DNA of 64,000 nucleotides from the NCBI GenBank assembly GCA_964413095.1, contig CAYPRJ010000001.1, positions 6,975 through 70,974 of the forward strand, written 5' to 3'. The notes beneath the pieces were generated by a model that was not told the DNA's origin, did no database searches, and saw only the letters and a list, made by a program, of their open reading frames with translations. A program made the translations under genes and the position numbers. Below, piece by piece: positions 1 to 42,719 of this stretch (position 1 is the stretch's first letter; the number at the start of each line of letters is the position of its first letter). The DNA is from Candidatus Woesearchaeota archaeon. GTDB taxonomy: Archaea > Nanobdellota > Nanobdellia > Pacearchaeales > GW2011-AR1.

Positions 1-987
1 CCATGGACTTTACCCCTTTTTATTAAAAATAAAATGATTAATCCCTTGGCTGCAGGATTAATGAGTTTTTTAGTTGATGGTTCTAGAACACTTTTGGTTG
101 CAGGAACAAGAAGTTCTGGGAAAACTTCTTTGCTCGGAAGTTTAATGTTAGAGATAATCCCAAAATACAGAATTATTGTTGTTGAGGATTCTTTAGAGTT
201 GCCTGTTGAATCTCTTAAAGATCTTAATTATGATATTTTAAGAATGAAAGTTCGTTCTGCTTTACTTAAAACTACAACAGAGGTTTCTGCTGAAGATGGG
301 ATTAGGACTAGTTTAAGATTAGGAGATTCTTGTTTAATTGTAGGAGAGGTTAGAAGTGTTGAAGCCAAGGCTCTTTATGAGGCTATGAGGGTTGGAGCTT
401 TGGCAAATGTGGTAGCAGGAACAATTCATGGTGCTTCTCCTTATGGGGTTTTTGACAGAGTTGTAAATGATTTAGAAGTTCCAGCTACAAGTTTTAAAGC
501 AACAGATTTAATTGCTGTTTGCAATCCAGTGAAAACTCCTGATGGATTGCATTCTTACAGACGTGTCATGCAACTTTCTGAAATAAGAAAACATTGGAAA
601 GAAGATCCTATCAGTGAAAATGGATTTGTTGATTTGTTAAAATATAATGTTAAAAAAGATGAGCTTGAAGCTACTGATGATTTAATGAATGGAGATAGTG
701 AGATTATAAAAGATATTGCTTCTAATGTAAAAGGCTGGGCAGGAAACTGGGATGCTGTTTATGATAATATTTTGCTCAGAGCTAAAATAAAAAAAGAACT
801 TGTAGATATTGCAAAAAAAACTGGCAAAGAAAAAATTTTAGAAGCTAATTTTAATTTACTTTCAAATCATATGTTTCATAAAATTTCTGATAAAGTTAGG
901 GAAGAAGTTGGTCTGCCTTTAAGTGAGAGAGTTTTTCCTGAATGGCAAAAATGGTTGAATGAAGAAATTAAAAAAAGAAAATTTTGA
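1..987 (+). CDS. Type IV pilus/archaellum-type secretion ATPase (FlaI/TadA/GspE family), C-terminal part; gene begins upstream of window
   Basis: Frame 1 is open from nt 1. Walker A-like GTRSSGKTSLLGSLM, Asp box/Walker B IVGEVRSVEA and His box GTIHGASP match FlaI/VirB11-family ATPases. The M at nt 34 is internal, not the start. Confidence 0.75.
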   Translation, partial: PWTLPLFIKNKMINPLAAGLMSFLVDGSRTLLVAGTRSSGKTSLLGSLMLEIIPKYRIIVVEDSLELPVESLKDLNYDILRMKVRSALLKTTTEVSAEDGIRTSLRLGDSCLIVGEVRSVEAKALYEAMRVGALANVVAGTIHGASPYGVFDRVVNDLEVPATSFKATDLIAVCNPVKTPDGLHSYRRVMQLSEIRKHWKEDPISENGFVDLLKYNVKKDELEATDDLMNGDSEIIKDIASNVKGWAGNWDAVYDNILLRAKIKKELVDIAKKTGKEKILEANFNLLSNHMFHKISDKVREEVGLPLSERVFPEWQKWLNEEIKKRKF

Positions 988-1020
988 AAGTTTTATAAAT
1001 AATATTTTCTTAGTCTGTTT

Positions 1021-1533
1021 ATGGTTGCAAGAAAAGAAATTAAGAAAAGAGTTGAGGATTATGAACGCAGAGCCAGAGTTAATGAAGAAAGAGCTGTTTA
1101 TTTGGGAAAAGGTACTAGAGCTCCTCCTCAAGAAAAAATAGATGAATTAATTAAAAAATCAACTTCTTATAGATTAAAAGCAGGGAATTATTGGTATTCA
1201 CTGGGAAATTTTCCAAAAGCAGAAAAAAATTATAACATGGCTGATAAATATTTACAGATGTATAAAAAAGGAAGTAAGGAATTAAGAGAAAAAATAGAAG
1301 GGAAATTAAATTCAGTAAAAAAGAATAAAGGATTATTATCTAAAATTTTTGAAACTAAATTTGTTGCATTTTTATCAATGATAGTATTTGGAGTAGCATT
1401 GGTTTCTATTTCTCTTAAAATGACTGGATTTGCAATAGGCAATTCAGAAAATATTTCTGCTTTTGTTAGTGTGGGTTTTTTTGTTATTGGCTTAGTTCTT
1501 GCATTTATTTATCTTAAGCATAAGGAAAAATAA
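1021..1533 (+). CDS. hypothetical protein with C-terminal transmembrane anchor
   Basis: 170-aa ORF with a charged N-terminal half and two C-terminal hydrophobic helices. It lies between the ATPase and the platform gene. Confidence 0.3.
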   Translation: MVARKEIKKRVEDYERRARVNEERAVYLGKGTRAPPQEKIDELIKKSTSYRLKAGNYWYSLGNFPKAEKNYNMADKYLQMYKKGSKELREKIEGKLNSVKKNKGLLSKIFETKFVAFLSMIVFGVALVSISLKMTGFAIGNSENISAFVSVGFFVIGLVLAFIYLKHKEK

Positions 1534-1582
1534 TTTCAAAACATTTATTAATAAATTTTCTCTTATAAAATAGAGGTGAATA

Positions 1583-1885
1583 ATGGTTGAATGGCTAACT
1601 TATGGATTACAAGTTGAAATTGTTACAATTGGATTGCTGATTTATGGACTGGCTGTTTTTTTAAGAGCTGTAAAACGTATTGATCAAGAATATAGGTTTG
1701 CAATTTTTTTAGTTTTGCTTGCTTTAATAATGGAAGTTATTCAGGGAACTATGGGAAGAATTCTTTTAACAAGCAATATAGGTGTTGAAAGTCCCCTATG
1801 GTTAGTATCACCTTTTGTTGGGGTTGTTGGAGCATATTTTTTAGTTTTAGGAGCAAGAAAATTTCTTTCAGCAAGTGAGAAGTAA
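1583..1885 (+). CDS. small integral membrane protein
   Basis: 100 aa, three hydrophobic segments, inside the pilus locus. Confidence 0.3.
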   Translation: MVEWLTYGLQVEIVTIGLLIYGLAVFLRAVKRIDQEYRFAIFLVLLALIMEVIQGTMGRILLTSNIGVESPLWLVSPFVGVVGAYFLVLGARKFLSASEK

Positions 1886-1930
1886 GTTTAACAATATATT
1901 TATTAATTGGTTTTATTTTTTTAATAAGAG

Positions 1931-4114
1931 GTGAATATGGCAAAATCTCAGAAGAAGCCAAGTGTTGATGATATTCTTAGAAAGTATGGGGCGAAGATAG
2001 AAGGAAAAATTAAGACTTCTGGTGTAAATCGAAAAGTAAAAACAGATTATAGCAGAGAGTATGTTAAATTTAAAAGTGAGATGGCTCCTGAACTTTCAAA
2101 ATTTGAAAAATGGTGTCATAGTCTTGGAAATATTTTAAAATTAAAAATTTCAGAAAAAGACGAGAAAAAAATTAAAAGACAGATTGAAATTGCACATCTC
2201 GACATAGAGCCATGGCAGGCATTGACTTTAAGTGTTGTTGCTTTTGCAAGTGTTTTTATTTTTGGTTTGTTGGCGTCTGTATTAGTAGCTTTAATTAGAG
2301 GAGGTATTTCTGAATTTCCTTTTTTGTTTTTCTTTTTAATGATTATTGTTTCTTTTTTTTCATTTTATATTGTTAATGGAATTCCTGCAAGGCTTGCTAA
2401 CAAGTGGAGACTTAAAGCTTCTTCACAAATGGTGCCAGCAATTTTGTATATTGTTATTTATATGAGGCACACACCCAATCTTGAAAGAGCAATTTCTTTT
2501 GCTTCTGAGCATTTACAATACCCTCTTGCTTTAGATTTTAAAAGAGTTTTTTATGGTGTTTCTGTTGGAAAATTTTCTACAATTAAAGAAAGTTTAGACA
2601 ACTACTTAGAGACATGGAGAGATTATTCTATTGAATTTATTGAAAGTTTTCATTTGATAGAAAGCAGTTTGTTTGAGCCAAATGAAGAGAGGAGAATTGC
2701 TTCTCTTGAAAAAGCTTTACAGGTTGTACTTGACGGAGTTTATGGTAAGATGCTTAAATTTACCCACAAGGTAAGAAGCCCTTTGACTAATGTTTATATG
2801 CTCGGAGTTGTTTTGCCGACTCTTGGTTTAGCTTTGTTGCCATTGGCTTCTGCAATGCTTGGAGGTTTTTTAAAATGGCATCATGTTCTTATTTTGTTTA
2901 ATCTTATACTTCCTTTTTTGGTTTTTTATCTTACAGATAAAATTATGTTTTTGCGTCCTGGTGGCTATGGTGAAACAGACTTATTAGAAAGAAATCCTCT
3001 GTATTCCAAATATAAAGATAACAGCCATTACACAAAAGCTTTTTTGATTTGTCTTCCTTTTTTGCTTATAGGTTTGTTGCCTTTAATTTTTCAATACACC
3101 CCAATTCCAGAAATTCTTGGTTTGCAAAGTGATTATACTTTTTCTAATTTAGGGTTGGGTCTTTTAGGAGATGAATCTATTTTTGGGTTTATAGAAACTA
3201 CTGAAGGTTTTAAGGGACCTTTTGGTGTTGGAGCTTTAGTTTTTAGTATGTTTATTCCATTAGGAATAGCTTTATTTTTTTCAACAGCTTTTAAGTCTAA
3301 GACAAAAGAATTAATTGTAGAAAGGAAAAAAACAAAGCAATTAGAAAAAGAGTTTAATAATTCTCTTTTTCAGTTAGGAAATAGAATAGGTAATGGGACT
3401 CCTCCTGAACTTGCTTTTGGAAAAGTTGCAGAATCTTCTCGCGGTTTGATAACAGAGAATTTTTTTAACAGAGTAAATTATAATATAAGGCAAATGGGTA
3501 TGAGCGTTGAGAAAGCTATTTTTGATCCAAAAATTGGAGCTATGAGATACTATCCTTCTGCATTAATTCTTACAAGTATGAGAATTCTTATAGAATCAGC
3601 AAAAAAAGGTTTAAAGATTGCTGCTAGGAGTCTTATGAGCATTTCAGAGTATGTAAAAAATATACAAAAAATAACTAGCAGACTTAAAGATTTGCTTGCA
3701 GAAATAGTTTCTGATATGAAAAGTAATATGACTTTTTTAGCTCCTTTACTTTCTGGAGTTGTTGTTGGTTTATCTATTATGATTACTTCTATTTTAGGGA
3801 AATTAAATTTAGCAAGTCTATCAGAAACAGATGTTGGAATTGGAAACTTAGATACAATTTTAAATATTTTTAATTTAGGAAACATGATTCCTCCTTATTA
3901 TTTGCAAATAATAATTGGTGTTTATTTAATTGAAATAGTTTTTATTTTAACAAGAACACTTGTGGCAATTGATTCAGGAGAAGATAAATTAGAAAAAACA
4001 AATAAAATAGGAAAAAATCTTATGAAAGGAATTACTCTTTATTTTATTGTAGCTCTTTTAGCAACTTTAGCTTTGTTTGTTTTAAGTTCTGTGGTTCTTG
4101 GAAATTTAGTTTAA
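1931..4114 (+). CDS. FlaJ/TadC-like polytopic membrane platform protein of type IV pilus machinery
   Basis: 727 aa with many TM helices and large cytoplasmic loops, immediately downstream of the FlaI-like ATPase, which is the canonical gene order. This is a family-level call. Confidence 0.5.
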   Translation: MNMAKSQKKPSVDDILRKYGAKIEGKIKTSGVNRKVKTDYSREYVKFKSEMAPELSKFEKWCHSLGNILKLKISEKDEKKIKRQIEIAHLDIEPWQALTLSVVAFASVFIFGLLASVLVALIRGGISEFPFLFFFLMIIVSFFSFYIVNGIPARLANKWRLKASSQMVPAILYIVIYMRHTPNLERAISFASEHLQYPLALDFKRVFYGVSVGKFSTIKESLDNYLETWRDYSIEFIESFHLIESSLFEPNEERRIASLEKALQVVLDGVYGKMLKFTHKVRSPLTNVYMLGVVLPTLGLALLPLASAMLGGFLKWHHVLILFNLILPFLVFYLTDKIMFLRPGGYGETDLLERNPLYSKYKDNSHYTKAFLICLPFLLIGLLPLIFQYTPIPEILGLQSDYTFSNLGLGLLGDESIFGFIETTEGFKGPFGVGALVFSMFIPLGIALFFSTAFKSKTKELIVERKKTKQLEKEFNNSLFQLGNRIGNGTPPELAFGKVAESSRGLITENFFNRVNYNIRQMGMSVEKAIFDPKIGAMRYYPSALILTSMRILIESAKKGLKIAARSLMSISEYVKNIQKITSRLKDLLAEIVSDMKSNMTFLAPLLSGVVVGLSIMITSILGKLNLASLSETDVGIGNLDTILNIFNLGNMIPPYYLQIIIGVYLIEIVFILTRTLVAIDSGEDKLEKTNKIGKNLMKGITLYFIVALLATLALFVLSSVVLGNLV

Positions 4115-4168
4115 GTATATCTTTTTTTATAAGAAAATTTAAAAACCTGAATTTAATTTTGAAAAGTT

Positions 4169-5302
4169 ATGAAAGGATATGATAGAGAAGAACAATTAAG
4201 ACAACAAGCATCTTTTTATGGGTTTAGAAAAAACCAGGAAGAAAAAGAAAGTATAAAGAAGCTTGTTAGAAAGTTATCTTTTGCCGGAGGAATAATATTG
4301 TTTTCTATGGGAGCTTGGCAAGCATCTTCGTCTTTTGTTGAAGAATTTAAGGAAAAAGAAAAAGATATCGCTAGACTTCAAAAATCTTATGATAATAAGA
4401 TTGAAGAATTTAAAAATTTAGAAGACAAAAACAAAAACTTAGAAAAAATTATTGAAGAGATTTTACCAAAATTAGAAAACAGGATAGCTAGTATAGAAGA
4501 ATCAGATCCTGGAATTATGTGGGATGCTGAAAATCTTATTAATAAATTAAGAGGGGGATATAATCAAGAGATTGATTTAAGAGAGTTAGAATCTTTGGTG
4601 ACAATTATTCCCAATAATATTACCAGAGCACAGCATACTTTGCTTGAAAGAAAACATGGAATTAATCTTTACAAACCCACTGAATCTTTTATAAAAAATC
4701 ATTTAGCAAATAATGGACATACTTATGTTACAAGTGAGCAAGGACAGAGAACACATGTTAAATTTAATGTAAATGAGTTAGATATTAGAGATATAGGAGG
4801 TAATTGGTTTTATATTGATGGGGAGCTTGGTTCTTGGAAAAAGGAAACTGTCAAAGGAATGAATGCATTTGTAAGGGATATTTTTCATAATGCAATTGAT
4901 TTATTTAATTCTTATGATAAAAGTATTTTTGTGAGGCATGAAGGGGAGATTGTTCTTTTTGAAGATTTTCATTCTGATGGCATTGAAGACCCTTATAATG
5001 ATCCTCTTGGAAGAAGTTGTATTTATGGGTTTGAGGAAGAAGGAAAAAAATATAGAGTTCAACTTTCTCATTTGAATGATGAATTACCTATAAAATTTAA
5101 ACCAGGAGACAAAGTTTATCCAGGAGATATTTTGGGAATTATTGGGAAAACAGGATTTGCTACAGGCCCACACCTTGATGTTAGATATTTTAAAAAAGAA
5201 AATAATGGGTGGAAAGAACTGATTTTATATTCAAATCGCACTTTTAATCCAGGAGAAAATTTTCTTTATGTTGACTGGATAAATAAGGACTGGAGAGAAT
5301 AA
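4169..5302 (+). CDS. M23 (LytM/lysostaphin)-like metallopeptidase with N-terminal TM and coiled-coil
   Basis: C-terminal GDKVYPGDILGIIGKTGFATGPHLDVRYF resembles the M23 signature G.TG.STGPHLHFE. An upstream HNAID gives an HxxxD motif at about 90 aa spacing. The second His of HxH is replaced by Asp. Confidence 0.55.
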   Translation: MKGYDREEQLRQQASFYGFRKNQEEKESIKKLVRKLSFAGGIILFSMGAWQASSSFVEEFKEKEKDIARLQKSYDNKIEEFKNLEDKNKNLEKIIEEILPKLENRIASIEESDPGIMWDAENLINKLRGGYNQEIDLRELESLVTIIPNNITRAQHTLLERKHGINLYKPTESFIKNHLANNGHTYVTSEQGQRTHVKFNVNELDIRDIGGNWFYIDGELGSWKKETVKGMNAFVRDIFHNAIDLFNSYDKSIFVRHEGEIVLFEDFHSDGIEDPYNDPLGRSCIYGFEEEGKKYRVQLSHLNDELPIKFKPGDKVYPGDILGIIGKTGFATGPHLDVRYFKKENNGWKELILYSNRTFNPGENFLYVDWINKDWRE

Positions 5303-5503
5303 TATCGTCTGCTTTGTTGAAAAAGTTGTTATTTTTTTGACTTATTAAACATTTTTTGACTTATTAAACAGAAAATTAGCTTCTTTGTTCGCAGATTGAT
5401 AAATTATTATTTGTGAGATTTTATTATTAGTTATTAATCGTGAGCTGAAAGCAAAAGCAATATTTTTTAACCAGATTTTAATTATTAAACAGAGTTAATT
5501 TTA

Positions 5504-5524
5504 TCTAAACATTTATTAATATCT
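5504..5524 (+). promoter_or_regulatory. conserved 21-nt promoter motif tctaaacatttattaatatct (BRE/TATA-like) 16 nt upstream of a pilin operon ATG
   Basis: An identical 21-mer occurs at 9312-9332 with identical 16-nt spacing to the ATG at 9349. A variant aaacatttattaataaat is at 1539-1556. Confidence 0.6.
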
Positions 5525-5540
5525 TCTTCTCTTTTTATAT

Positions 5541-5699
5541 ATGAGAAAAATAAAAAAAGGTGTTGTTTCAGAATATCTTCCTTGGTTATTAATAGCAATT
5601 GCAGTTCTTGCTATAGTTATGATTACTCTTTTTTTGCTGAAAGATAGGGGATTTTCTTTGATTGATAAAATAAAAGATTTATTTACAGGGGGCATATAA
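5541..5699 (+). CDS. small pilin-like protein (class III signal peptide candidate)
   Basis: MRKIKKG|VVSEYLPWLLIAIAVLAIV: basic N-terminus, then Gly, then a hydrophobic helix. The stop overlaps the next start. Confidence 0.35.
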   Translation: MRKIKKGVVSEYLPWLLIAIAVLAIVMITLFLLKDRGFSLIDKIKDLFTGGI

Positions 5700-5866
5700 T
5701 GGCAAATTTAACAGTTCCTCAGTTAATTAAAATTATTATTGGAATTGCTGTAGTTGTTGTTGTAATTCTTGGTTTATTTTTATTTTTTAAAGAACAGGTA
5801 ATAGATTTTTTTAATAATTTTATAGGAGAAGAACCTCAAAAGTTTTTTCTTAGTTTTTTAAAATGA
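5699..5866 (+). CDS. small membrane protein
   Basis: 55 aa with one TM. Its ATG overlaps the preceding stop (ATAATGG) and its TGA overlaps the next ATG. Confidence 0.3.
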   Translation: MANLTVPQLIKIIIGIAVVVVVILGLFLFFKEQVIDFFNNFIGEEPQKFFLSFLK

Positions 5867-6378
5867 GAAATAAAAAAGGATTTTTATTAGGAGAAGAAAC
5901 CCTGAAAATAATTTTAGCTTTAGTTGCTATTGGTTTTTTAATTTATTTTTTAGTTTCTTTATATCTAGCAAACAGCAAAAGTAAAGATTTGGAACTTGCT
6001 GAAGCATCTTTAGAGCATTTAATTGAAGAAATAAATTCAAAAAATAGTGAAATTGAAATTTATAATCCTGAAGGTTGGTGGATAATTTCTTGGCCTTATG
6101 AAGGGATTATTCCTAATTCTTGTTCTAATGTTGGCTGGGAAAATTGTGTTTGTATTTATAGAGGGGAATCAGGTATAGGCAAGTTTTTTAAAAATTTAGG
6201 AAGCAGAATGGGTTTAAGCAAAGATGAAAAAGAAAGATTAGCAATTATTGTAGATGATGAGGAAAGAGCTCTTTGTCTAGAAAGTGATTTTTCTTTTGAA
6301 ACAAACCCAACAAAAATACAAAATCCTCCTTTAACATTAAACATAGAATATAATGAGGAAATAATAATAACAAGGTAA
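5863..6378 (+). CDS. pilin-like protein
   Basis: MRNKKGF|LLGEETLKIILALVAIGFLIYFLV class III signal-like N-terminus, 171 aa. Confidence 0.4.
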   Translation: MRNKKGFLLGEETLKIILALVAIGFLIYFLVSLYLANSKSKDLELAEASLEHLIEEINSKNSEIEIYNPEGWWIISWPYEGIIPNSCSNVGWENCVCIYRGESGIGKFFKNLGSRMGLSKDEKERLAIIVDDEERALCLESDFSFETNPTKIQNPPLTLNIEYNEEIIITR

Positions 6379-6379
6379 A

Positions 6380-6484
6380 ATGGATTTAGATGCATTAATA
6401 AAATATTTAATATGGATTGTTTTTTTTGGATTAGCTTTGGCTGGGATGTATTTTATGCTTAAAAGATTTGGAGTAGTAGGATGA
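6380..6484 (+). CDS. small membrane peptide
   Basis: 34 aa (MDLDALIKYLIWIVFFGLALAGMYF...). The stop overlaps the ATG of the next gene. Confidence 0.25.
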   Translation: MDLDALIKYLIWIVFFGLALAGMYFMLKRFGVVG

Positions 6485-7257
6485 AAGTTAATTCAGGTAA
6501 AAAAGGTGAAATTTCAACAAGATATTTAATTATGATAATAATTTTAATTGCAAGTTTTGCTATAATTTTGTTTTTTATTTTTAGATTGAATTTACAAGAA
6601 ACAGGTGATAAAGAAATTTGCCATAATTCTGTTGTTTTAAAATCAAAAGGAAAAGGACTTGTGGGAGATTTGGATTGCAAGACAAATTATGTTTGTATTT
6701 CTGGAGGAAAAGATTGTGAGGGAATAAATCCTACTACTACAATTAAGGTTGATCCTAAAAACAAAGAAGAAATTATGAAGGCAATAGCAGAAGAAATGGC
6801 AGATTGCTGGTGGATGTTTGGGGAAGGAGAATTGGATTATTTAGGTTTAGGAGAAGAAGGACTCTCAAAAACAACTTGCGCAATGTGTTCTATTATTAAG
6901 TTTGATGAAAAGATATTAAAAGAAGATTATAAAATAACTTATACAGAATTTTATGAATATCTTAATACAATTAAAAAAGATGAATCTCAGACTTATTTAA
7001 CTTATTTGTATGATGTTTATAATATTAAAGAACTTCAGGAAAACTTTTTCTTAGATAAGGATATTGAGAAAAATTTTATTTTAACAAAAGATAGATATGC
7101 AATTGTAACAGGAGTAAAAAAAGGAGCTACAATTAAGGTTTTTGGAAAAGATATTAATTTGCCTTGGTTTAAGAGAAATTTAATTCCTTCTTATTATATT
7201 AAATCTGAAAGTTTAAGTGAAGAGTTGGGTTGCGATGAGTATGTTACTAAGGCTTAG
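6481..7257 (+). CDS. pilin-like / Cys-containing secreted protein
   Basis: N-terminal KKGE then a hydrophobic helix. 258 aa with multiple Cys pairs in the mature part. Confidence 0.4.
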   Translation: MKVNSGKKGEISTRYLIMIIILIASFAIILFFIFRLNLQETGDKEICHNSVVLKSKGKGLVGDLDCKTNYVCISGGKDCEGINPTTTIKVDPKNKEEIMKAIAEEMADCWWMFGEGELDYLGLGEEGLSKTTCAMCSIIKFDEKILKEDYKITYTEFYEYLNTIKKDESQTYLTYLYDVYNIKELQENFFLDKDIEKNFILTKDRYAIVTGVKKGATIKVFGKDINLPWFKRNLIPSYYIKSESLSEELGCDEYVTKA

Positions 7258-9253
7258 AAAGATACTCTTTAGAACGTTTTGTTAAGTATAGTAGACCATG
7301 GTAAGTATCTATACCTTCTTCTTTAAAACTCTCAATGAATTTTTTATTTAAATTAGGTAACATAAAGATGAAATTTCTTCCCATTCTTTTTCCAAGTTCT
7401 GAAACTTTTCTTATAGCTTCTTCTTCTGGGATGTTTTTCTTTTCATAACTTTCAACTAATTCTTCAATTGGAGAAATGAAATTTCTTTTAATAAATCCAT
7501 TTAATTCTTCTTTACTCATATTATAAAGAGTCCTTTGAAATTTTGCTGCTTCTCTAAAATATTCTCCAGATTTAGAGATGGGTATATCTAAAATTTTGTA
7601 GGGATCTTCATCATATACTTCGTTGAGATAAAATTCTCCTCCTATTCTTTTTTGGTAATTTATTAAAGAATCAAGATAAGCTCTTTCAGTGTTTATATCC
7701 AGTTCTTCATCTAATATAAATATTGGAACAAAACCCTTTGATATAAAGGCCATACCTACATTTCCGTATCCAGGGAAACCGAATGTCTCTTCTTTACCCA
7801 CCTTATTTAGAAAGTCCCACGCATCTGTATTTTCCTTAAACTGCCAAATTTCTAGTTGTAGCATATTTGGATCAGATGCTTTTAAGGATTGAATGTTTTC
7901 TGTGTTATATAAAGCAGCTCCTAGACCTATAAGGTTTAGTTCATCCAATTCCCAATTTTCTTCTCTCATCTTAGCTATTTCTCTTTTATTAAGGATGTAA
8001 GGAAGTGTTCTTCCTTCAATATCTTGGATAAGTGAGATTCCTTCCAACTCCTCTCCTTGCAAGAAATAATCCTCTAATGTTTGAGGTCCTCTTTCGGCAA
8101 GTTCCTTTTCTTGTTGAAAAAGAATTTTTGAGAAATTAACTAGGTTTGCATAATAATCATCTAAATTTTTGCTGAAAACTTTAGAGTTCATTCCAAGATT
8201 TGCTTCTAATCCTCCCAGCATTTTCCAAGATGATTTTTCAGAATTTATTGCTAAAGAACCTTCTATTTCTGCACTTGGTCCAGCAATGCCGTAAACTAAG
8301 AAGTTTAGTCTTGGTTCAACATATGCATTTAAATTAGAAATCTTAGAAAGTTCAGGAGGAGAGAAATTAAAAGAGTTTGAAAAATCACTATCTTTATCCC
8401 ATTTTTTATCTTTATATGAAACTCCAGCACTTATAGAATTTTCTTCTGTTATAGAAGTTTCTATTGGAGAAATACTTCCCTCTAATCCAATATATAATTG
8501 TAATTCTGGTTTTATTATTATTGGCAGAGGAGTTCCTGGGATTACTCCTGCATTAAAAGGGGGGAAATTATATTGAGCGATTTTTATTTCTTTATTTATA
8601 TCTTCGAGGGATTCAGAAGAATTTATTTCTAATTCATATCCAATATCAGATTTATTTCTAAAAGATAATTCTTTTAAGGAGTTGTTTTGAATGTCACAAT
8701 TTATAAAAAATTTTGAATAAAAATTGAAATTTCCGTTTGCAGTTATTTGGTCTTCTGTAGTAGTTTTGTCTCCATCAGCATCATATAAAACAATTTCTTT
8801 GAAATCGTGATTTATATTAAGAGAACCTGCTTCATGGTGTTTTTTAAATGTTCCTTCTTTAGTTTTAAGAATATATTCTCCTGAAGGAGGGGATACTTCT
8901 AATTCAAAAGATGCATTTTTTACAGCCTCTTCTAAAGTGGCATCTTCTATTTGTATTGTCTTTTTATCTTCAGAAACATTATTTACTTTTTTTAAAAGTC
9001 CATAAGGGGTTGAATCGCTAATTCCTGTAGAGACTATATCTCCTGTAGAAAAAGAAACAGGTTCTGAGAAATCTATTCTGTTTTCTCCCACTGATGAAAT
9101 ATTTTTAATATCCTTTTCTGACAAAACAAGAGTATAAGGAGAAAGTTCATTTTTTGGTCCCAATAATGAAGAGATTTCTTTTTGACATCCTGCAAACAAA
9201 ACAGAAGCTCCTAGCAAAGCTCCAGCGATAATATTTCTAAGGTTTTTCTTCAT
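7247..9253 (-). CDS. secreted lipoprotein of unknown function (possible pilus-associated adhesin)
   Basis: N-terminus MKKNLRNIIAGALLGASVLFAGC has a lipobox Cys after a signal peptide. 668 aa, embedded among pilin genes. Confidence 0.5.
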   Translation of the reverse strand: MKKNLRNIIAGALLGASVLFAGCQKEISSLLGPKNELSPYTLVLSEKDIKNISSVGENRIDFSEPVSFSTGDIVSTGISDSTPYGLLKKVNNVSEDKKTIQIEDATLEEAVKNASFELEVSPPSGEYILKTKEGTFKKHHEAGSLNINHDFKEIVLYDADGDKTTTEDQITANGNFNFYSKFFINCDIQNNSLKELSFRNKSDIGYELEINSSESLEDINKEIKIAQYNFPPFNAGVIPGTPLPIIIKPELQLYIGLEGSISPIETSITEENSISAGVSYKDKKWDKDSDFSNSFNFSPPELSKISNLNAYVEPRLNFLVYGIAGPSAEIEGSLAINSEKSSWKMLGGLEANLGMNSKVFSKNLDDYYANLVNFSKILFQQEKELAERGPQTLEDYFLQGEELEGISLIQDIEGRTLPYILNKREIAKMREENWELDELNLIGLGAALYNTENIQSLKASDPNMLQLEIWQFKENTDAWDFLNKVGKEETFGFPGYGNVGMAFISKGFVPIFILDEELDINTERAYLDSLINYQKRIGGEFYLNEVYDEDPYKILDIPISKSGEYFREAAKFQRTLYNMSKEELNGFIKRNFISPIEELVESYEKKNIPEEEAIRKVSELGKRMGRNFIFMLPNLNKKFIESFKEEGIDTYHGLLYLTKRSKEYLSKP

Positions 9254-9311
9254 TCCACCATATACTATTTTTTATATTTAAATATTATTATAGTCCTTTT
9301 CATTGCTTTTT

Positions 9312-9332
9312 TCTAAACATTTATTAATATCT
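9312..9332 (+). promoter_or_regulatory. second copy of the 21-nt pilin promoter motif
   Basis: Exact match to 5504-5524. The ATG at 9349 is 16 nt downstream. Confidence 0.6.
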
Positions 9333-9348
9333 TTGTGTTTTTTAAAAT

Positions 9349-9747
9349 ATGAAGAATAAAAGAGGTGCAAATATTTTAACAGAGAACCTTATTTTTATTA
9401 TTTTGAATTTGGTTTTTATAAGTATTTTAATTATTTTTTTATTTTCTAAGACAGGAAGTGCTGCTGTTTTAGAGGAGAAATATGCTAAGCAAATAGCTTT
9501 GATAATTGATTCCGCAAAACCACAAATGACAATTAAACTTAATATGAAAGATGCTATTGATAAAGCAAAAAAAGAATGGGATGAATCAAAAATAGATGAA
9601 ATAGTGAAGATTAATGGCAATATTGTCTCAGTAAAACTTAGAGAGAAGGGAGGTTATAGTTATTCATTTTTTAATGATATAGAAGCTAATGTATATCTTG
9701 ATACTACAAATAATGAAGAATATATTATTACAGTAAATGAAAAATAA
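9349..9747 (+). CDS. pilin-like protein
   Basis: MKNKRGA|NILTENLIFIILNLVFISILIIFLF: KRG then a hydrophobic stretch typical of archaeal prepilins. 132 aa. Confidence 0.45.
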   Translation: MKNKRGANILTENLIFIILNLVFISILIIFLFSKTGSAAVLEEKYAKQIALIIDSAKPQMTIKLNMKDAIDKAKKEWDESKIDEIVKINGNIVSVKLREKGGYSYSFFNDIEANVYLDTTNNEEYIITVNEK

Positions 9748-10930
9748 AAAGCTAAGTTGGAAATTGAATAAAAAAGGGGACAAAATAATCTCTGTTTATT
9801 GGTTTGTAATTTTGTTTATTGTAGTTGCAGCTGTTGTTTATATGGCCTATCTTTTTTATGGAACTCCTTATGATGCAAGAGCTGTTGAAGCAAGAGTTTT
9901 AAAAAATAAAATTGCAGATTGTTTATCTGAAGGAGGATATTTAAAAGAAAAAGTTTTAACAGAAAATTTCAAGGATAATTTTTTAGAGAAATGCGATTTA
10001 AACTTAAATGTTGAGGATGCTTATGGTTGGGAAGATGACCAGTATTATATTAAGGTGAGTTTTTATGAATTTGATAATGATTTTTCAGGTAATTTAGGAA
10101 ATTTAATTGAAGAGATAGAAGTTGGAAATATTAATTTAGTTTCTTATGCCATTCAAGAGCAAAAAGAAAAAAGCAAAAAAGATGAGATGGATACAATTGT
10201 GATTCATTATACAGAAGGTTTTTCTGCCAGAGGAGCAATTGAAACAATAAAAGATAATAATTTAAGTGTGCATTATATGATTGATAGAGATGGAACAATT
10301 ATTTCAAAAGAAAATGCTGATAACTTTTTGGAAGGAGGAGAAAAAGCCTTTGTTGGAGAAGATGAGAGAGGAGCTCATGCTGGATGTTATGATATCAGGA
10401 AAGGAGAAGAAAGAAGAAAATGCACTGAAGAAGATTTTGAAAATTTAAATTCAATTAATAATAGTTGTGATTTATTTGATTTAAACGAGGAAGAAAAATG
10501 TTGTATTCCTAGTTTTAACACGCATTCTATTGGAATAGAGCTTGTAAATCTTGGTTCTAAGTGTAATGAAGAAACTGTTTTAACAGAAAATTATTGCGAG
10601 GATAATGAAGTAGAAATTTGTGGAAAAAAATGGGAGAATTTCACTGCAGAACAAATTAGTTCTTTAATGAATTTAGCTTCAGAAATTGCTTCAAGAAATA
10701 AGATTCCTATTGACAGGGAGCACATAATTGGACATGACGAGATTGCTTTTGGGTTTAAATCAGATCCTGGTCCTGCATTTCCCTGGAAAAGCTTTATAGA
10801 AAATTTGAAAATTAGAGAAACACTAACTCCTAATTTAGAAAGAAGTTTTTATGTTTTAGATAAAAATACTAATGAAAAATATGTAATTAAAATTTTGACA
10901 ATTGTAAGAAAAACAGAAAAAAATGCTTAA
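9737..10930 (+). CDS. N-acetylmuramoyl-L-alanine amidase (amidase_2 / AmpD-PGRP family) with N-terminal membrane anchor and Cys-rich insertion
   Basis: IVIHYTEG...SVHYMIDRDGTI, GAHAG, NTHSIGIELVN, and HIIGHDEIAFGFKSDPGPAFPW match the amidase_2 Zn-amidase blocks of T7 lysozyme and AmpD (GH..i..K.DPGP.F). Confidence 0.8.
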   Translation: MKNKKLSWKLNKKGDKIISVYWFVILFIVVAAVVYMAYLFYGTPYDARAVEARVLKNKIADCLSEGGYLKEKVLTENFKDNFLEKCDLNLNVEDAYGWEDDQYYIKVSFYEFDNDFSGNLGNLIEEIEVGNINLVSYAIQEQKEKSKKDEMDTIVIHYTEGFSARGAIETIKDNNLSVHYMIDRDGTIISKENADNFLEGGEKAFVGEDERGAHAGCYDIRKGEERRKCTEEDFENLNSINNSCDLFDLNEEEKCCIPSFNTHSIGIELVNLGSKCNEETVLTENYCEDNEVEICGKKWENFTAEQISSLMNLASEIASRNKIPIDREHIIGHDEIAFGFKSDPGPAFPWKSFIENLKIRETLTPNLERSFYVLDKNTNEKYVIKILTIVRKTEKNA

Positions 10931-11447
10931 TAAGATTTTAATAAGAAAAAAAGCTCAGATTGGGGAAACTATAACATGGGTAGTTGCAACTATCATTATA
11001 ATTGTTATTCTTGCATTTTCAATTTTTGTTACATCATCATTAACAAAAGGAAAAGGAATTTCAGGAGCAGGGAATGGTAAAGAAATTGGAGTGATTAATG
11101 AAAAAGATTTAATTGCTGCAAAATCTTTATCTAGCTATTTATTGACAAAAGATGCTTCTGGAGAAATTGTTTTTGAGCAGATAAAAACCGAAGGAAATTT
11201 AAATGATTTTAATGGAGAATTAGCTGAGGCAATTTTTGAGGGGCTTTATAGTAAAGATTACTCTCATGTTATTTGGTTTGGAGTGGTTAAAAATGTAGGA
11301 TTATTTAATAATGATTATTTTGGTAGTAGGGGAAAGACAGTACAGCGAAAAGGAGGAGATACAGTTCCTGGATATTATTCTTCTGTTGGTGAAAAATTAA
11401 TGTTAGATGAAAATAAATGGTTGGAATTAATCTTAATGGATGATTAA
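10923..11447 (+). CDS. pilin-like protein
   Basis: N-terminal basic stretch then TITWVVATIIIIVILAFSIFV helix. 174 aa. The start overlaps the upstream stop. Confidence 0.35.
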   Translation: MLNKILIRKKAQIGETITWVVATIIIIVILAFSIFVTSSLTKGKGISGAGNGKEIGVINEKDLIAAKSLSSYLLTKDASGEIVFEQIKTEGNLNDFNGELAEAIFEGLYSKDYSHVIWFGVVKNVGLFNNDYFGSRGKTVQRKGGDTVPGYYSSVGEKLMLDENKWLELILMDD

Positions 11448-11793
11448 AATGAGAAAAATCACAAAAAATAAGAAAGCAGATATTCCTGTGACAATTTTAG
11501 TAATTGGTATTGTTGCAGTTTGTGTTTTGGCGATTATAAGTTTTGTAATCTCTGGAAGTTCAAATCAAACAGGAGTCGAAGCTTTTGAAGAAATAGATTC
11601 TTATGTTGAAAAATTTTATTTTTATTTAAATGCTGGTTTTTCAGAAGAGGAAGCTTTGGAAAAAGTTTCTGCAGAAAAAATTTCTGGAAAGAATTTGGAA
11701 ATGAAAATTGAGGAAAATAATTTAATTATAAAAAAATATTATAAAGAAAGAGATGTTGTTTTGGATATTAAATATGCAAAGCCCTTGAAATAA
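11440..11793 (+). CDS. pilin-like protein
   Basis: N-terminal KNKKADIPVTILVIGIVAVCVLAIISFV. 117 aa. The start overlaps the upstream stop. Confidence 0.35.
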   Translation: MIKMRKITKNKKADIPVTILVIGIVAVCVLAIISFVISGSSNQTGVEAFEEIDSYVEKFYFYLNAGFSEEEALEKVSAEKISGKNLEMKIEENNLIIKKYYKERDVVLDIKYAKPLK

Positions 11794-11831
11794 TTGGAAA
11801 GTTTTATAAATAAAATATTCTTCAAATATTT

Positions 11832-12323
11832 ATGTTGAATAAAAGAGGTCAGGGTTTAAGCACTAATGCTATAATATTAATTATTTTGGGTGTTGTTGTT
11901 TTAGTTATTTTAATAATAGGATTTACTCTTGGATGGGGAACCTTGAAAGACAGAATAACTGGTGGAGGAAATAATGTTGATGATGTTGTTCAGGAATGTA
12001 GTTCAGCATGCGCTACTTTAAGCAGATATAGTTATTGTTCTGCAAAAAAGGAATTAAAAACAGAAGATGAAACATTAACTAATGTTACTTGTTATTATTT
12101 AGCTGAAAAGCAACCACAATATGGAATTGAAAAATGTTCTGCTTTGAGTTGTGATTATGTGTTTGTAGATGTAGATGTAAATGAAGGAGAGACAATTGAA
12201 GACAAGTGTAAAGATAATGAAGAAAATGCAATTCAGGCATTAAAAGGAGAGACAATTCAGGCCTTAATAGATAATGAATTAATTAGTCATGATTGTCCTG
12301 CACAATCTGAAACTGCTGAATAA
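11832..12323 (+). CDS. archaeal type IV pilin (class III signal peptide)
   Basis: MLNKRGQ|GLSTNAIILIILGVVVLVILIIGF has the canonical KRGQ prepilin-peptidase site. The mature part is Cys-rich. Confidence 0.55.
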   Translation: MLNKRGQGLSTNAIILIILGVVVLVILIIGFTLGWGTLKDRITGGGNNVDDVVQECSSACATLSRYSYCSAKKELKTEDETLTNVTCYYLAEKQPQYGIEKCSALSCDYVFVDVDVNEGETIEDKCKDNEENAIQALKGETIQALIDNELISHDCPAQSETAE

Positions 12324-12673
12324 ATTAATTTTCTAAAAATATTTAAAGTATTTTTTCTTATTTAAATTATGGATTATAATTCAGGAAGCGACAAGAGGAA
12401 AAAGAGAAAAGATAAGAAAAAAGATAAAAAGAAACACCCTTATAAAAAAGGTGGGAAGAGGAGAACGCAGAAGAAGTAATCTTGTTGAAAATATCTATTA
12501 TCTGCCATTCACTACTCTCCAACCTCCCAATTAGCTGCTCATTATTATTCCAGAAATTTGCTTATTAACTTTAATCAATCAATTTGCGAAGCAGCATTTT
12601 TTCAACTAAAGATTCTGATACACTAATAATTCTAAATACAAAATAATTTAAATAAACCACACATTTTTACTTA

Positions 12674-13522
12674 ATGGAAGAGGTGATTTTTTTAATAATT
12701 TTAGCATTAATCTGGATTATTTTTGCTGTTGTTCAGGATTTAAGAAATAGAGAAATTGCTAATTGGTTAAATTTTTCTTTAATAATTTTTGCCTTGGGGT
12801 TTAGGTTTTTTTATTCTCTGTTTTCTGAAACAGTGAGTTTTTCTTTTTTTTATCAAGGACTTTTAGGTCTGGGAATTTTTTTTGCATTAGGAAACTTGCT
12901 TTATTATAGTAGAATGTTTGCAGGAGGAGATGCAAAACTTATGATTTCTTTAGGGGCTGTGCTTCCTTTTTATAATGTTTTTTTTGACAATCTAAAAAAC
13001 TTTGTATTATTCTTTTTAATCTTTTTAGTTGTTGGTGCTTGTTATGGTTTTATTTCAAGTATTATTGTAACAGTAAAAAACTTTCAACCATTTAAAAAAG
13101 AATTTTCTTCACAAATAAAATCAAGAAAAAAAATATTATATGTTTTGATGGTTTTTGGTTTGGTATTAATGATTTTAGGATTTTTTGAAAATCTTTTTTT
13201 TCTTTTTGGTATTTTTTCTTTTATTTTCCCCTGGTTCTATATCTATGCAAAATCTGTTGATGAAGCATGTATGATTAAAAAAATCGAAGTGAAAAAATTA
13301 AGAGAAGGAGATTGGCTTTATAATAATGTAAAAATTGGGAAGAAGATAATTAAGGCAAAATGGGATGGTTTATCAAAAAAGGAAATCAAGGAGATAAGGA
13401 AGAAAAAGAAAAACGTGAAAATAAGAGAAGGAATTGCTTTTAGTCCTGTTTTTTTAATTAGTTTTATAATTTTGGCTTTATTTTATTTTTTGAAAATAGA
13501 TTTATGGAATTTTATAATTTAA
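12674..13522 (+). CDS. prepilin/preflagellin peptidase (A24 family, PibD/FlaK-like) with Lys-rich C-terminal extension
   Basis: Polytopic membrane protein with VQDLRNREIANW (first Asp motif) and FAGGDAKLMISLGAV (the GxGD-type second catalytic Asp motif of A24 peptidases). Confidence 0.65.
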   Translation: MEEVIFLIILALIWIIFAVVQDLRNREIANWLNFSLIIFALGFRFFYSLFSETVSFSFFYQGLLGLGIFFALGNLLYYSRMFAGGDAKLMISLGAVLPFYNVFFDNLKNFVLFFLIFLVVGACYGFISSIIVTVKNFQPFKKEFSSQIKSRKKILYVLMVFGLVLMILGFFENLFFLFGIFSFIFPWFYIYAKSVDEACMIKKIEVKKLREGDWLYNNVKIGKKIIKAKWDGLSKKEIKEIRKKKKNVKIREGIAFSPVFLISFIILALFYFLKIDLWNFII

Positions 13523-16158: not shown

Positions 16159-19100
16159 ATGGCTACTAAAAAAGATGTTGAAGAAATTAAGAATGCTGTT
16201 TCTGGAGAGGAGAAGGAGGAAAAAGAGCCTCAGCTTACAGATTTGCCGGGAATTGGTCCTGCAGTAGCAACAAAGCTTGAATCTGCAGGAATATATGATT
16301 TAATGTCTTTAGCTGTTATGGGTCCTGCTGAGTTAGGGAATATTGCTGGTGTTAGTGCTGGTGTTGCAAGAAAAGCTATTCAAGCAGCGCGTAGTATGTT
16401 GAAACTAGGTTTTACAGATGGCTTTGAATATGCACAGAGAAGAGCTAATGTTAATTATATTACTACTGGAAGTAAAAATATTGATAATCTTCTTGGGGGA
16501 AAAGGTGTAGAAAGCAGAGCAGTTACAGAAGCATTTGGAGCTTATGGTTCTGGAAAGTGTGTAAGTAAAGACACTGCGGTTAGTTATTTTAATGATACAA
16601 GGATGCATGTTGAGCAGATACAGGAAACTTACAATAAATACAACAAAAATAATGAGTTTAAGTTTGAGGAAGGATTTGCTGTCCCTGTTTCAAGCGTAAA
16701 GGTTCTTGCTTGGAATAAGGGAAAATTAAAAGTTGCAAGAGCTTCACATTTATATAAGGAAAAAGTAAAGCAGTTATTCTTAGTAAAAACAAAAAGAGGC
16801 AGGGTTTTAAAAGTTACAGGAAAACACAGGATTTTAAGTTTTGATAATGGGGTTAAATGGAAAAAAACATCGGATTTAAAAAAAGGAGACTTAATTGCTT
16901 CTCCAAGAAAATTAGATTTGGTTACAGAAAATATTTATGATGAAGATGATGCTTATTTTTTGGGGTTGTTTGTAGCAGAAGGAACTTCAAATCCTTTTTC
17001 AATTTCAACTGGCTCTGAAAAAATAAAGAATTGGGTTTGCAATTACATAAAAAATAAATTTAGATATGTTCCTCTGGTGAGATATAATCAAAGAGGTGAA
17101 AAACCAGTTTATACAATTTTATCAAAAAATAAAACCCGCGGAATAATGGCTGGACTTGATAAATGCAACTCCTCTAATAAGTTTATTCCTGAAGCTATTT
17201 TTCTTTCAGATGAAAATGTTGTTTCTTCATTTTTAGGAGGATATCTTGATGGAGATGGAGAGGTTTCTAAAACAGATGTCTCTGCGACTACAAAAAGCTC
17301 TAAACTGGCTACACAATTAAGTTATTTGTTTTTAAGATTGGGAATTAGCGTAAGTATTAAAGAAAGAAAAAATGAAAAATATGGAAACTATAAGGTAGTT
17401 AGGGTAAGTGGTGAAGATAGAAAAAGGCTAAAAAATGTTTCTTTTAAGATAAAAAGATTTTCTCCTGATATAAGAAATAGTGCTTATGGCTATCCTCGAA
17501 AAATAATTTCTTTTCTTCACCAACTTTATAAAGAGTGTCTTGGAGGTAATAGGGGAAGATTAAGAAAAGAAGTAGGCAAAAGAAGTTTGGACAGAACTGT
17601 TTATTCTAATTTAATAAACCAATATCAGGGAAAGGTGGTAAATACAAAAACATTTAGAAGAATAGAAGATGTTTTTGAAAAACAGAAAGACAGATTTGTT
17701 CATATTTTAAAGAAACTCGAAGATGAAGAATTTAGCCAGGAAATTTTAAATGAAATCTATCCTAGTTTGCCTTTTGCTTTTAGTTCATTGGCAGAAGATA
17801 TGGGCCTGAAGAAAAAAAGCATAAGAAATTATTATCATAGAAATATTCCTAATTCAAAAAAAGAGATTTTAAAGAATCTTATTTTTAATGAATTAAAAAC
17901 CAGGGTTGATATGATTTACCTGGCTTTGGAAATTATTTCAGAAATAAAGATGTTTAATTGGGATGTTGTGGAGAGTGTTGAAGTTATTGATTATGATGAT
18001 TATGTTTATGACTTTGTTGTTCCAGAGGGGCATTCTTTTATTGGGGGCAATCTTCCTACAATGATGCATAATACTCAGCTTGGTTTAACTCTTGCTGTTA
18101 ATGTTCAATTGCCTGTTGAAAAAGGTGGTGCAAATGGAAAGTGTGTTTTTATTGATACAGAAGGAACTTTCAGACCAGCGCGTATAAAACAAATTGCTGA
18201 AATTTTAGGAGCCAATCAAGAAAAAGTTTTGAAAAATATTTTAGTTGCAAGAGCTTTTAATTCAGATCATCAAATTTTGCTTTTAGAAAAAATCTCTGAA
18301 ATGGTTAAACAAGGAGAACCAATTAAATTATTAATTGTTGATTCTTTAACTGCACATTTTAGAGCAGAGTTTTCAGGAAGAGGACAATTAGCAGACAGGC
18401 AGCAAAAATTGAATAAATATCTTCATAATTTAATGAGGCTTGCTGAACAGCACAATCTTGCAGTTTATGTTACAAATCAAGTAATGGCAAATCCTGCGCA
18501 GATGTTTGGAGATCCTACAACTGCAATTGGGGGGAATATTGTGGGACACGCTTGTTTAACAGGAGATAGTTTAATTCAATTAGCTGATGGAAGTATAAGG
18601 GAAATTAAAAATATTAGTAAGAATAATGTTATTTCTGGAAATTTAAATAAATTAAGCTTTGAACAAGCAGGCTCTGAAAAAACTTTTATCAATCCAGACA
18701 TCAAAAAAATTTACAATATTAAAACAACAAATCAAATAAAGTGTTCTCCTCTCCATAGATTTTTTTCAATAGAAAATTTTTCTATTATTGAAAAAGAAGC
18801 CAAAGATTTGAGAGAGGGGGATTTTATTGCTCATGCAGGAAGAATTGAGATAGGGGGAGAAGAGCAGGAGTTGCCGACTCTAAATTTAAGAAGAATTGGA
18901 AAAATATCTAAAGATGAGGGAAAATTAATTTCAGAGGAGCTTGGAAAAGGAAATATTTCAAGAAATGAAATATGCAAGAAAGTGGGGATAACTTCAAGGC
19001 AGTTTAGAAGGGTTTTAAATCAGTCATATCCTACAAATATTAAAGTTTTTGATGCTTTAAAAAAGCATTTTGCAAATAATCTTCAGTTACAGGTTGTTCC

Positions 19101-40584: not shown

Positions 40585-40720
40585 AGCCTGTGGAGGGATT
40601 CTAACCCCCGGCCTACTGCTGGCTTTCTGAACATGTAGTTGGCTCAGATACAAGGCAGTTGAGCATATCTTAACCTTTTAGAGTCACAGATATTCCGCTC
40701 TAACACTGAGCTACACAGGC
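40585..40720 (-). tRNA. tRNA-Thr(TGT) with two introns (~36 nt after the D-arm, ~28 nt at 37/38)
   Basis: Reverse complement: acceptor GCCTGTG/CACAGGC, D-arm GCTC..GAGC, anticodon stem ACTGC/GCAGT with loop CTTGTA|intron|A, T-arm GGGGG-TTAGAAT-CCCTC. Confidence 0.6.
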
Positions 40721-42610: not shown

Positions 42611-42719
42611 TGGTCCTGCGCGGAATTGAACCGCGGTTTTATCCATTTTGTGAACAGCTTACAGATTTAAGTGAACTGAACTCGTCAAGGACATGTCTTA
42701 GCCACTGGACTACAGGACC
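42611..42719 (-). tRNA. tRNA-Val(GAC) with ~37-nt anticodon-loop intron
   Basis: Reverse complement: acceptor GGTCCTG/CAGGACC, D-arm GTC-AGTGGCTAA-GAC, anticodon stem TGTCC/GGATA with loop TTGACG, T-arm CGCGG-TTCAATT-CCGCG. Confidence 0.6.

Follow-up and report, generated by a model that had tools for sequence, protein, structure and literature searches.

A candidate archaeal pilus locus in which a pilin-like subunit carries a predicted murein amidase domain

Background

Bacterial modular type IV pilins, such as PilB and PilC of S. sanguinis and GspK of the type II secretion system (T2SS), consist of a small pilin module that carries a grafted functional module for presentation on a filament, and a peptidase module is among their known architectures (PMC8179133). 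Here we describe a candidate type IV filament (TFF) locus at positions 1-13522 of a 64,000-nucleotide stretch of contig CAYPRJ010000001.1, which is referred to below as the window. One pilin-like subunit of this locus carries a predicted murein amidase domain of the Amidase_2 family, and a second gene encodes a membrane-anchored protein with an M23 metallopeptidase domain. The arrangement resembles that of the bacterial modular pilins in that a small pilin module bears the graft, and it resembles GspK in that the pilin beta-sheet is interrupted by the additional domain (PMC8179133). In contrast to the bacterial examples, however, the locus is archaeal, its ATPase is FlaI-like and its peptidase FlaK-like, and the grafted modules are murein hydrolases (Amidase_2 and, in related loci, SLT). 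Moreover, the pilin module is not recognized by pilin hidden Markov models (HMMs), and its incorporation into a filament is putative.

Other systems are similar in part. The Sulfolobus bindosome (Bas) involves functional proteins that have class III signal peptides, and its TFF-like ATPase and platform act with small pilin-like proteins in surface display. Non-structural functional proteins bear prepilin-type leaders in Bas, and a leader of this type is predicted here. However, Bas displays sugar-binding proteins for uptake and not enzymes, and the ATPase of the present locus scores 39-66 bits against the BasE model, for which the cutoff is 1000, so this ATPase is not a member. Phage tail lysins, amidase effectors of type VI secretion systems (T6SSs) and VirB1 of type IV secretion systems (T4SSs) are examples of contact-dependent delivery of muralytic enzymes. 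There, too, a filamentous or needle-like device bears a murein enzyme (amidase, transglycosylase or M23) that acts where the device meets a wall. These devices are unrelated to type IV filaments, whereas the enzyme described here would be a structural subunit of the pilus.

Murein hydrolases have been described in the same archaeal lineages. Large extracellular SLT proteins are found in Pacearchaeota and Woesearchaeota (Castelle et al. 2021, PMC8204110), "vampiristic" Woesearchaeota have been proposed (Vigneron et al. 2022, PMC9723730), and archaeal peptidoglycan hydrolases (PGHs) that kill bacteria, as well as M23 domains in four Nanoarchaeia genomes, have been reported (Strock et al. 2025, PMC12352652). 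As with the present locus, bacterial murein is the presumed target and the distribution is patchy. The published enzymes differ in that they are secreted as separate proteins or are PGHs with domains that bind the cell wall. Neither pili nor pilins came up in a term search of these three texts, hydrolases are not mentioned in a 2026 survey of archaeal TFF systems, and full-text literature searches returned nothing relevant to a pilin-embedded muralytic domain. Within the limits of the literature covered, such a domain appears to be undescribed. A preliminary description of this DNA, made from its sequence alone, knew of no earlier account of this gene combination. The idea that murein hydrolases of Pacearchaeota and Woesearchaeota are directed against bacteria had already been published, but a link to pili was not found in the three papers.

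Type IV pili (T4P) are used for host recognition and attachment by episymbionts among the Saccharibacteria and the candidate phyla radiation (CPR) (PMC9894109, PMC11623550). These are likewise ultrasmall, host-dependent cells. Their pili are bacterial T4P, however, and no muralytic pilin has been reported for them, so the analogy is only an ecological one.

An amidase domain inside a pilin-like subunit

The gene that carries the amidase domain is as follows.

9737-10930, plus strand: modular pilin-like protein of 397 amino acids (aa), with an Amidase_2 domain at residues ~150-360 (nucleotides (nt) 10184-10816)

The pilin module of this protein, here called the amidase-pilin, comprises residues 1-145 and 365-397, and the protein scores 76.4 bits against the Pfam Amidase_2 model, for which the curated cutoff is 26. 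The preliminary description had listed an amidase of this type as a separate enzyme gene among pilin genes. The family assignment is upheld, but the domain lies within a pilin-like protein.

In most related loci, the gene at this position (the slot) encodes a plain pilin-like protein of 165-180 aa. Its N-terminus, KKG-DKIISVYWFxILFIVAGAVVYM..., is strongly conserved, and the protein includes a Cys-x-Cys loop and the C-terminal motif ERSFYVLD...QYxIKILSIVRKTEKN. The window protein keeps the N-terminal 145 and the C-terminal 30 residues of the slot pilin, and an Amidase_2 domain of ~210 residues takes the place of the Cys loop. The gene overlaps both neighboring pilin genes by 8-11 nt.

An AlphaFold2 (AF2) model of the amidase-pilin, based on 48 homologues, has a predicted local distance difference test (pLDDT) score of 87.8. 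The model comprises a long N-terminal helix (residues 12-41 and 48-63) followed by strands at residues 103-112 and 120-130. After the amidase domain, strands at residues 368-374 and 381-390 complete a four-stranded sheet. According to this model, the protein is a pilin-like "lollipop" whose enzyme domain is inserted between beta2 and beta3. It thus combines the features by which modular pilins are recognized, namely an alpha1 helix packed on an antiparallel beta-sheet and an extra functional module, and that module has the Amidase_2 fold.

Residues H157, H333, D343, E268 and Y180 of the amidase domain are invariant among the 48 sequences, K341 is kept in at least 90% of them, and the alignment to AmpDh2 covers the HxxxK.DPGP motif. 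As read from these alignments, the zinc ligands and catalytic residues are intact. Because the catalytic residues are invariant across sequences that have diverged to 40-58% identity, the amidase is probably under purifying selection. The nearest relatives and structural matches of the domain are cell-wall amidases of Bacillota and phages. The domain also includes lineage-specific Cys-rich insertions of about 65 aa within residues ~205-300, which have no counterpart in the Pfam model (197 residues fall on a 131-position profile). Of the 10 Cys residues of the protein, C217, C229, C255 and C256 hardly vary among the sequences.

Recurrence and distribution of muralytic modules

Muralytic domains are found on pilin-like proteins of this locus in three architectures, which reflect repeated and independent grafting. 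In the first, Amidase_2 resides in the slot pilin, as in the window, in loci L001-L004 and in ~66 further proteins. The second is an SLT domain in the slot pilin, present as an insertion of ~190 residues at another site, directly after the helix. It is represented by P0080 and P0081 (locus L005). P0080 matches the Pfam SLT model (PF01464) with 45.1 bits. P0081 alone has no Pfam match; its homology to P0080 extends over the whole protein (E 2e-49), and the motifs ES...GVMQVN...YNGWG are present. In the third architecture, Amidase_2 is carried by the adjacent pilin, whose plain form is the 174-aa protein listed below (p174), and lies C-terminal to the leader and helix; the preceding slot pilin is plain. 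This form is found in P0072-P0078 and in loci L010, L087 and L088.

A metagenome scan was seeded with the pilin module alone, and complete, distinct slot pilins were counted. Of these 64 proteins, 57 are plain, seven carry an amidase and none carries any other kind of module. An unbiased genome scan provided 52 species-level loci with a readable slot: 48 are plain, two have an amidase insert, one has an SLT insert and one has an adjacent amidase-pilin. The frequency of muralytic modules is ~8-11% of loci. In both samples, every complete slot pilin longer than 215 aa has a muralytic module, and none has a module of another kind. In a rough neighbor-joining tree of the candidate platform protein, the amidase-bearing loci are scattered among plain ones over at least three separate clades. 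Conservation of the hydrolases in homologous loci, which the preliminary description proposed as a check, is not what is seen, and a single other locus has the M23 gene.

The best reason to believe that enzyme and pilus act together is that murein-specific domains, and only these, have been recruited repeatedly onto pilins of a single locus. This pattern supports a functional coupling between the murein hydrolases and the pilus, which is closer than the co-encoding noted in the preliminary description. That description had viewed the whole apparatus as a candidate device for breaching the wall of a bacterial host or prey cell, which was too general. The coupling itself is supported by the amidase inside a pilin, the two further architectures, the intact catalytic residues and the relatives in Bacillota and phages. 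By contrast, the apparatus as a whole is not a wall-breaching device: most versions of this core locus are free of hydrolases.

The M23 metallopeptidase

A second predicted murein hydrolase is encoded between the candidate platform gene and the first of the small pilin-like genes.

4169-5302, plus strand: membrane-anchored protein of 377 aa with a coiled-coil stalk and a C-terminal M23 domain (residues ~236-345, nt 4874-5203); a rare accessory gene

On its own, the window protein scores 28.2 bits against PF01551, just below the Pfam cutoff of 28.7. A word-indexed search with this protein found one homologue, and an exhaustive search revealed a small family. All 11 family members match PF01551 (best E 2e-18), so the M23-like endopeptidase of the preliminary description is supported at the level of the family. 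The family profile matches structures in the PDB that include Csd3 (E 4.7e-12) and ShyA (E 2.7e-11), as well as LytM and lysostaphin. Residues H240, D244, H301 and H335 are invariant in the family. By these profile matches, the product of 4169-5302 probably holds a genuine M23 domain.

A coiled coil joined to a LytM domain is also typical of degenerate activators of the EnvC/NlpD kind. Such an identity was not adopted as the main interpretation, since the window protein has kept the catalytic residues. Activators of the EnvC type partner with Amidase_3 and not with Amidase_2, which also counts against that reading.

The pilus locus and its prepilin-like subunits

The genes for the predicted assembly machinery are listed here, together with those for two small membrane proteins of the locus.

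1-987, plus strand: secretion ATPase of the FlaI/TadA type, C-terminal 328 aa; the gene starts upstream of the window
1021-1533, plus strand: 170-aa protein with two C-terminal transmembrane (TM) segments, a weakly conserved locus member (orthologues in several loci, E 1e-7 to 1e-10)
1583-1885, plus strand: 100-aa protein with three TM segments, a conserved locus member (orthologues E 1e-17 to 1e-27)
1931-4114, plus strand: 727-aa polytopic membrane protein, candidate platform (FlaJ/TadC/PilC role)
12674-13522, plus strand: class III signal (prepilin) peptidase of family A24, 282 aa (PF01478, 48.5 bits)

The truncated ATPase matches Pfam T2SSE with 50.6 bits and the NCBIfam TadA and FlaI models with E ~1e-20. 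Its orthologues are 760-780 aa long, and a full-length orthologue scores 125 bits against TadA and 120 bits against FlaI; both scores are below the equivalog cutoffs, so the assignment is made at the family level only. The A24 peptidase matches NCBIfam FlaK (E 2e-9), and both D22 and the Asp of its GGDAKL motif are present. No open reading frame (ORF) of the block has a Pfam or NCBIfam match at E<=0.1 to the archaellum-specific proteins FlaH, FlaG, FlaF and FlaCDE/X or to archaellins. In these three respects, the ATPase, the peptidase and the lack of anything specific to archaella, the preliminary description is borne out. Its account of a complete machinery in one co-oriented block needs correction: the ATPase is cut at the window start, and a gene for a 668-aa lipoprotein within the block is on the minus strand. 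The FlaJ/TadC-like platform that it named corresponds to a polytopic membrane protein, for which Pfam, NCBIfam and a PDB profile search gave no match to the FlaJ/TadC family or any other. An internal duplication of the T2SSF type in this protein is not significant in hhalign (P 0.18), and its AF2 model is of low confidence.

A scan of a genome collection with the platform protein revealed 357 species with a relative, and the best 80 of these 357 were examined. The genomic context of the amidase homologues was also inspected. The common gene order begins with the ATPase, one or two small membrane proteins, the platform and the genes p52, p55, p171, p258 and p132, named here for the lengths of their products in the window. 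These are followed by the slot pilin, p174, p117, p163 and the A24 peptidase, and then by genes for HIT, EF-1beta, RPA and RadA. Synteny that includes these flanking genes extends to more than 50 species. As judged from gene order, the block at 1-13522 is a core, vertically inherited type IV filament (pilus) locus of the lineage, and no special island.

The small genes on either side of the amidase-pilin gene are as follows, where a slash marks the putative cleavage site.

5541-5699, plus strand: 52-aa prepilin-like protein, KKG/VVSEYLPW..., motif kept in 64 orthologues
5699-5866, plus strand: 55-aa protein with a single TM segment and no K-G leader motif
5863-6378, plus strand: 171-aa prepilin-like protein, KKG/FLLGEE..., Glu at +5
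6481-7257, plus strand: 258-aa prepilin-like protein with 8 Cys, KKG/EIST...
9349-9747, plus strand: 132-aa prepilin-like protein, KRG/ANILTE..., stop overlaps the start of the amidase-pilin gene
10923-11447, plus strand: 174-aa prepilin-like protein, KKAQIG/ET..., of the family that carries Amidase_2 in other genomes
11440-11793, plus strand: 117-aa prepilin-like protein, KKA/DIPVTILV...
11832-12323, plus strand: 163-aa prepilin-like protein with 8 Cys, KRG/QGLSTNAIIL..., an archaellin/pilin-type leader

A [KR][KR][G/A] motif is found 3-9 residues ahead of an N-terminal hydrophobic helix in eight genes, of which the amidase-pilin gene is one. The motif and the hydrophobic stretch are kept across 40-65 orthologues in each of these eight families. 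The preliminary description counted about 10 class III prepilin genes; eight have the conserved motif, and 5699-5866 is without it. A Glu at position +5 after the putative cleavage Gly occurs in the protein of 5863-6378 (KKG/FLLGE), and in that of 9349-9747 (KRG/ANILTE) a Glu is at +6 in the window and at +5 in the consensus. Glu at +5 is a hallmark of bacterial, and not archaeal, type IV pilins.

The lipoprotein and other variable cargo

The minus-strand gene of the block is as follows.

7247-9253, minus strand: predicted lipoprotein of 668 aa, lipobox LFAG/C, a variable accessory gene

The protein has no Pfam or NCBIfam match. Its residues ~360-560 include a domain of ~190 aa that is common to secreted proteins encoded on the minus strand in at least nine other loci.

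L001, 8632-9504, minus strand: relative of the lipoprotein domain
L007, 12163-13632, minus strand: relative of the lipoprotein domain
L026, 12164-13582, minus strand: relative of the lipoprotein domain
L027, 12163-12948, minus strand: relative of the lipoprotein domain
L031, 13614-14363, minus strand: relative of the lipoprotein domain
L057, 7496-8938, minus strand: relative of the lipoprotein domain
L059, 14152-15633, minus strand: relative of the lipoprotein domain
L060, 12174-12947, minus strand: relative of the lipoprotein domain
L085, 12178-14217, minus strand: relative of the lipoprotein domain

Judging by the shared domain, the 668-aa lipoprotein is one of a recurrent family of secreted proteins or lipoproteins that are encoded antisense inside the pilus locus, and the set varies from locus to locus. 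The lipoprotein of the preliminary description is thus retained, as its lipobox predicts, but not its orientation with the rest of the block.

Unrelated cargo occupies the position of the lipoprotein gene in other loci (serpin, LamG, DUF4215 and propeller proteins). One Amidase_2 protein is the only other murein hydrolase among 30 variable inserts of related loci, and the rest are serpin, LamG, DUF4215 and propeller proteins. Insertion hotspots of L005 (1888-2879 and 5084-5724) contain a nucleotidyltransferase pair and an RHH/PIN toxin-antitoxin pair. In other loci, an insertion hotspot is located just after the platform gene.

Proposed mechanism and alternative explanations

The explanation that we favor, with moderate confidence, is a pilus locus that has a muralytic modular pilin-like subunit and a membrane-anchored M23 endopeptidase, both aimed at bacterial murein. 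The pilus is equipped with such hydrolases in a minority of lineages, where the filament most likely displays them. The A24 peptidase would cleave the leader of the amidase-pilin after Gly14, and the subunit would enter the filament via its N-terminal helix. Because of its bulk, the subunit is probably located at or near the filament tip, as are bacterial modular pilins and GspK. Anything that the pilus contacts would then be exposed to an active zinc amidase. If this were a bacterial cell, stem peptides would be removed from its glycan by the amidase, and after cell contact the M23 enzyme would cut cross-links, so that the murein would be weakened locally. Perhaps this weakening serves attachment, feeding or killing.

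Possible, but clearly more tentative, is the proposal that the pilus of Pacearchaeota and Woesearchaeota is a cross-domain contact organelle aimed at bacteria, whose tip subunit has repeatedly been made into a murein-cutting "enzymatic harpoon" (Amidase_2 or SLT) in some lineages. Such a harpoon would bind to bacterial walls and drill them for cell contents, or for DNA and nucleotides, and can be likened to competence-linked fratricide in streptococci.

Several observations weigh against the explanation of a muralytic pilus. The hydrolase-free loci are in the great majority in both the genomic and the metagenomic sample; ~90% of lineages run the pilus without a hydrolase, and therefore its function in most lineages needs none. 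None of the pilin-like ORFs matches an archaeal pilin HMM in Pfam or NCBIfam, and the 727-aa candidate platform has no match in Pfam, NCBIfam or a PDB profile search. Cleavage of the amidase-pilin at the predicted site would place the unusual pair Asp-Lys at +1/+2, so its N-terminus might serve simply to anchor it in the membrane. A nearly unique feature is the M23 gene: its one other occurrence is in L086, where it likewise lies between the platform gene and p52, and the other 80 genomic loci as well as ~29 metagenomic loci that span this position lack it. Finally, the second His of the HxH motif, a zinc ligand, is Asp in the window M23 protein and in three relatives, and is His in the other seven. 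Asp can bind zinc.

The main rival, which we consider unlikely, is that no filament is involved: the class III-like N-terminus would only anchor and position the enzyme, either on the surface of the cell or within a short pseudopilus or bindosome-like assembly. The amidase and the M23 enzyme would then scavenge murein debris for amino acids and sugars rather than attack living cells. However, the protein that bears the amidase is a particular, conserved subunit from an operon of eight pilins and is translationally coupled to its neighbors. Moreover, insertion within the fold leaves the pilin module intact and its C-terminal strands are kept, which would be needless for a mere anchor. The three other rivals are judged to be less likely.

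It is improbable that the enzymes act on a substrate other than murein, such as pseudomurein or a different glycopeptide in an archaeal host, or an envelope polymer of the cell itself, in which case the target would be no bacterium. The known cultured hosts of DPANN archaea are themselves archaea (PMC11537232). The Cys-rich insertion of ~65 aa could alter the specificity of the amidase, and the H-to-D change at a zinc ligand of the M23 domain is also in keeping with another substrate. Yet three different murein-specific families have been recruited (Amidase_2, SLT and M23), and the nearest relatives and structural matches of the amidase domain point to bacterial walls. Furthermore, SLT enzymes cut the bond between N-acetylmuramic acid (MurNAc) and N-acetylglucosamine (GlcNAc), and Amidase_2 enzymes cut the MurNAc-L-Ala bond, and pseudomurein has neither.

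Still less probable is an incidental insertion, in which lysin genes from bacteria or phages have entered a permissive, variable locus, or are decaying there, with no function linked to the pilus. Hotspots of the locus do take up unrelated cargo, including serpin, LamG and propeller proteins and toxin-antitoxin pairs, and both the M23 gene and the lipoprotein gene sit in such hotspots. However, the amidase is in frame inside a pilin, its catalytic residues have stayed invariant despite extensive divergence, and there are three separate fusion architectures that involve muralytic domains only.

Least probable of all is a role in the cell's own wall, through which the hydrolases would open a passage for the pilus, as VirB1, FlgJ and other machine-associated lysins do in bacteria. 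It is common for trans-envelope machines of bacteria to come with a muralytic enzyme of their own, but no archaeon is known to have murein, ~90% of orthologous loci have the same machinery without a hydrolase, and gain of the modules was sporadic, in at least three separate clades of the platform tree.

Genomic setting

The window has a GC content of ~28%, and Rfam detects four tRNA genes of 109-138 nt, presumably intron-containing, at the positions below. ARAGORN misses all four and gives two intronless tRNAs only.

40585-40720: tRNA gene, presumably with an intron
42611-42719: tRNA gene, presumably with an intron
51721-51858: tRNA gene, presumably with an intron
55912-56035: tRNA gene, presumably with an intron

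The window also encodes aEF-1beta, an RPA-type OB-fold protein and TFIIB, and has RadA and SRP54 genes with inteins. Together with the intron-containing tRNAs, these genes indicate an archaeal source. The 727-aa membrane protein has more than 3400 homologues at 66-78% identity, and the named ones are all from metagenome-assembled genomes (MAGs) of Pacearchaeota, Woesearchaeota or Nanoarchaeota. By its gene content, the organism is a DPANN archaeon of the Pacearchaeota/Woesearchaeota type. Two NCBI homologues, P0068 and P0194, are labelled at source as "Patescibacteria group bacterium" or "Candidatus Paceibacterota bacterium"; these labels probably reflect mis-binning or mislabelling of MAGs from ultrasmall cells.

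Three intein-bearing genes lie within 20 kb. The RadA/Rad51 gene (16159-20166, plus strand) encodes 1335 aa with intein splicing and LAGLIDADG domains, and the SRP54 gene (31883-35023, minus strand) encodes 1046 aa with an intein. The third (22367-24700, plus strand) encodes 777 aa with an intein and a LAGLIDADG domain, and its host protein is without any Pfam assignment.

An ORF of 2056 aa (45363-51533, plus strand) lies in the sole stretch of raised GC content in the window (0.34 versus ~0.28). It was checked as a candidate for one of the known giant SLT proteins and rejected: it has no Pfam match even at E<=0.1 and no detectable SLT domain. It may be a giant surface protein typical of these archaea. 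A protein of 285 aa (56129-56986, plus strand) matches the C-terminal domain of the [FeFe]-hydrogenase large subunit with 132 bits. In an otherwise minimal genome region, this could be a Nar1-like protein or a sensory remnant.

Implications

Pacearchaeota and Woesearchaeota are among the most abundant uncultured archaea of sediment and groundwater. A muralytic subunit of their core pilus would connect a surface filament of archaea with the walls of bacteria in concrete, testable molecular terms. It would also extend the principle of the modular pilin to archaea and to enzymatic, muralytic cargo. The amidase domain, the M23 domain, the A24 peptidase and the pilin leader are defined proteins with which attack on bacteria and on wall chemotypes can be assayed, and the enzymes could serve as probes or baits to find partner organisms. 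If the tentative proposal of an enzymatic harpoon is true, this would be the first enzyme-bearing archaeal pilin, and the locus would be direct evidence, at the level of the genome, that bacteria are the targets of these uncultured archaea.

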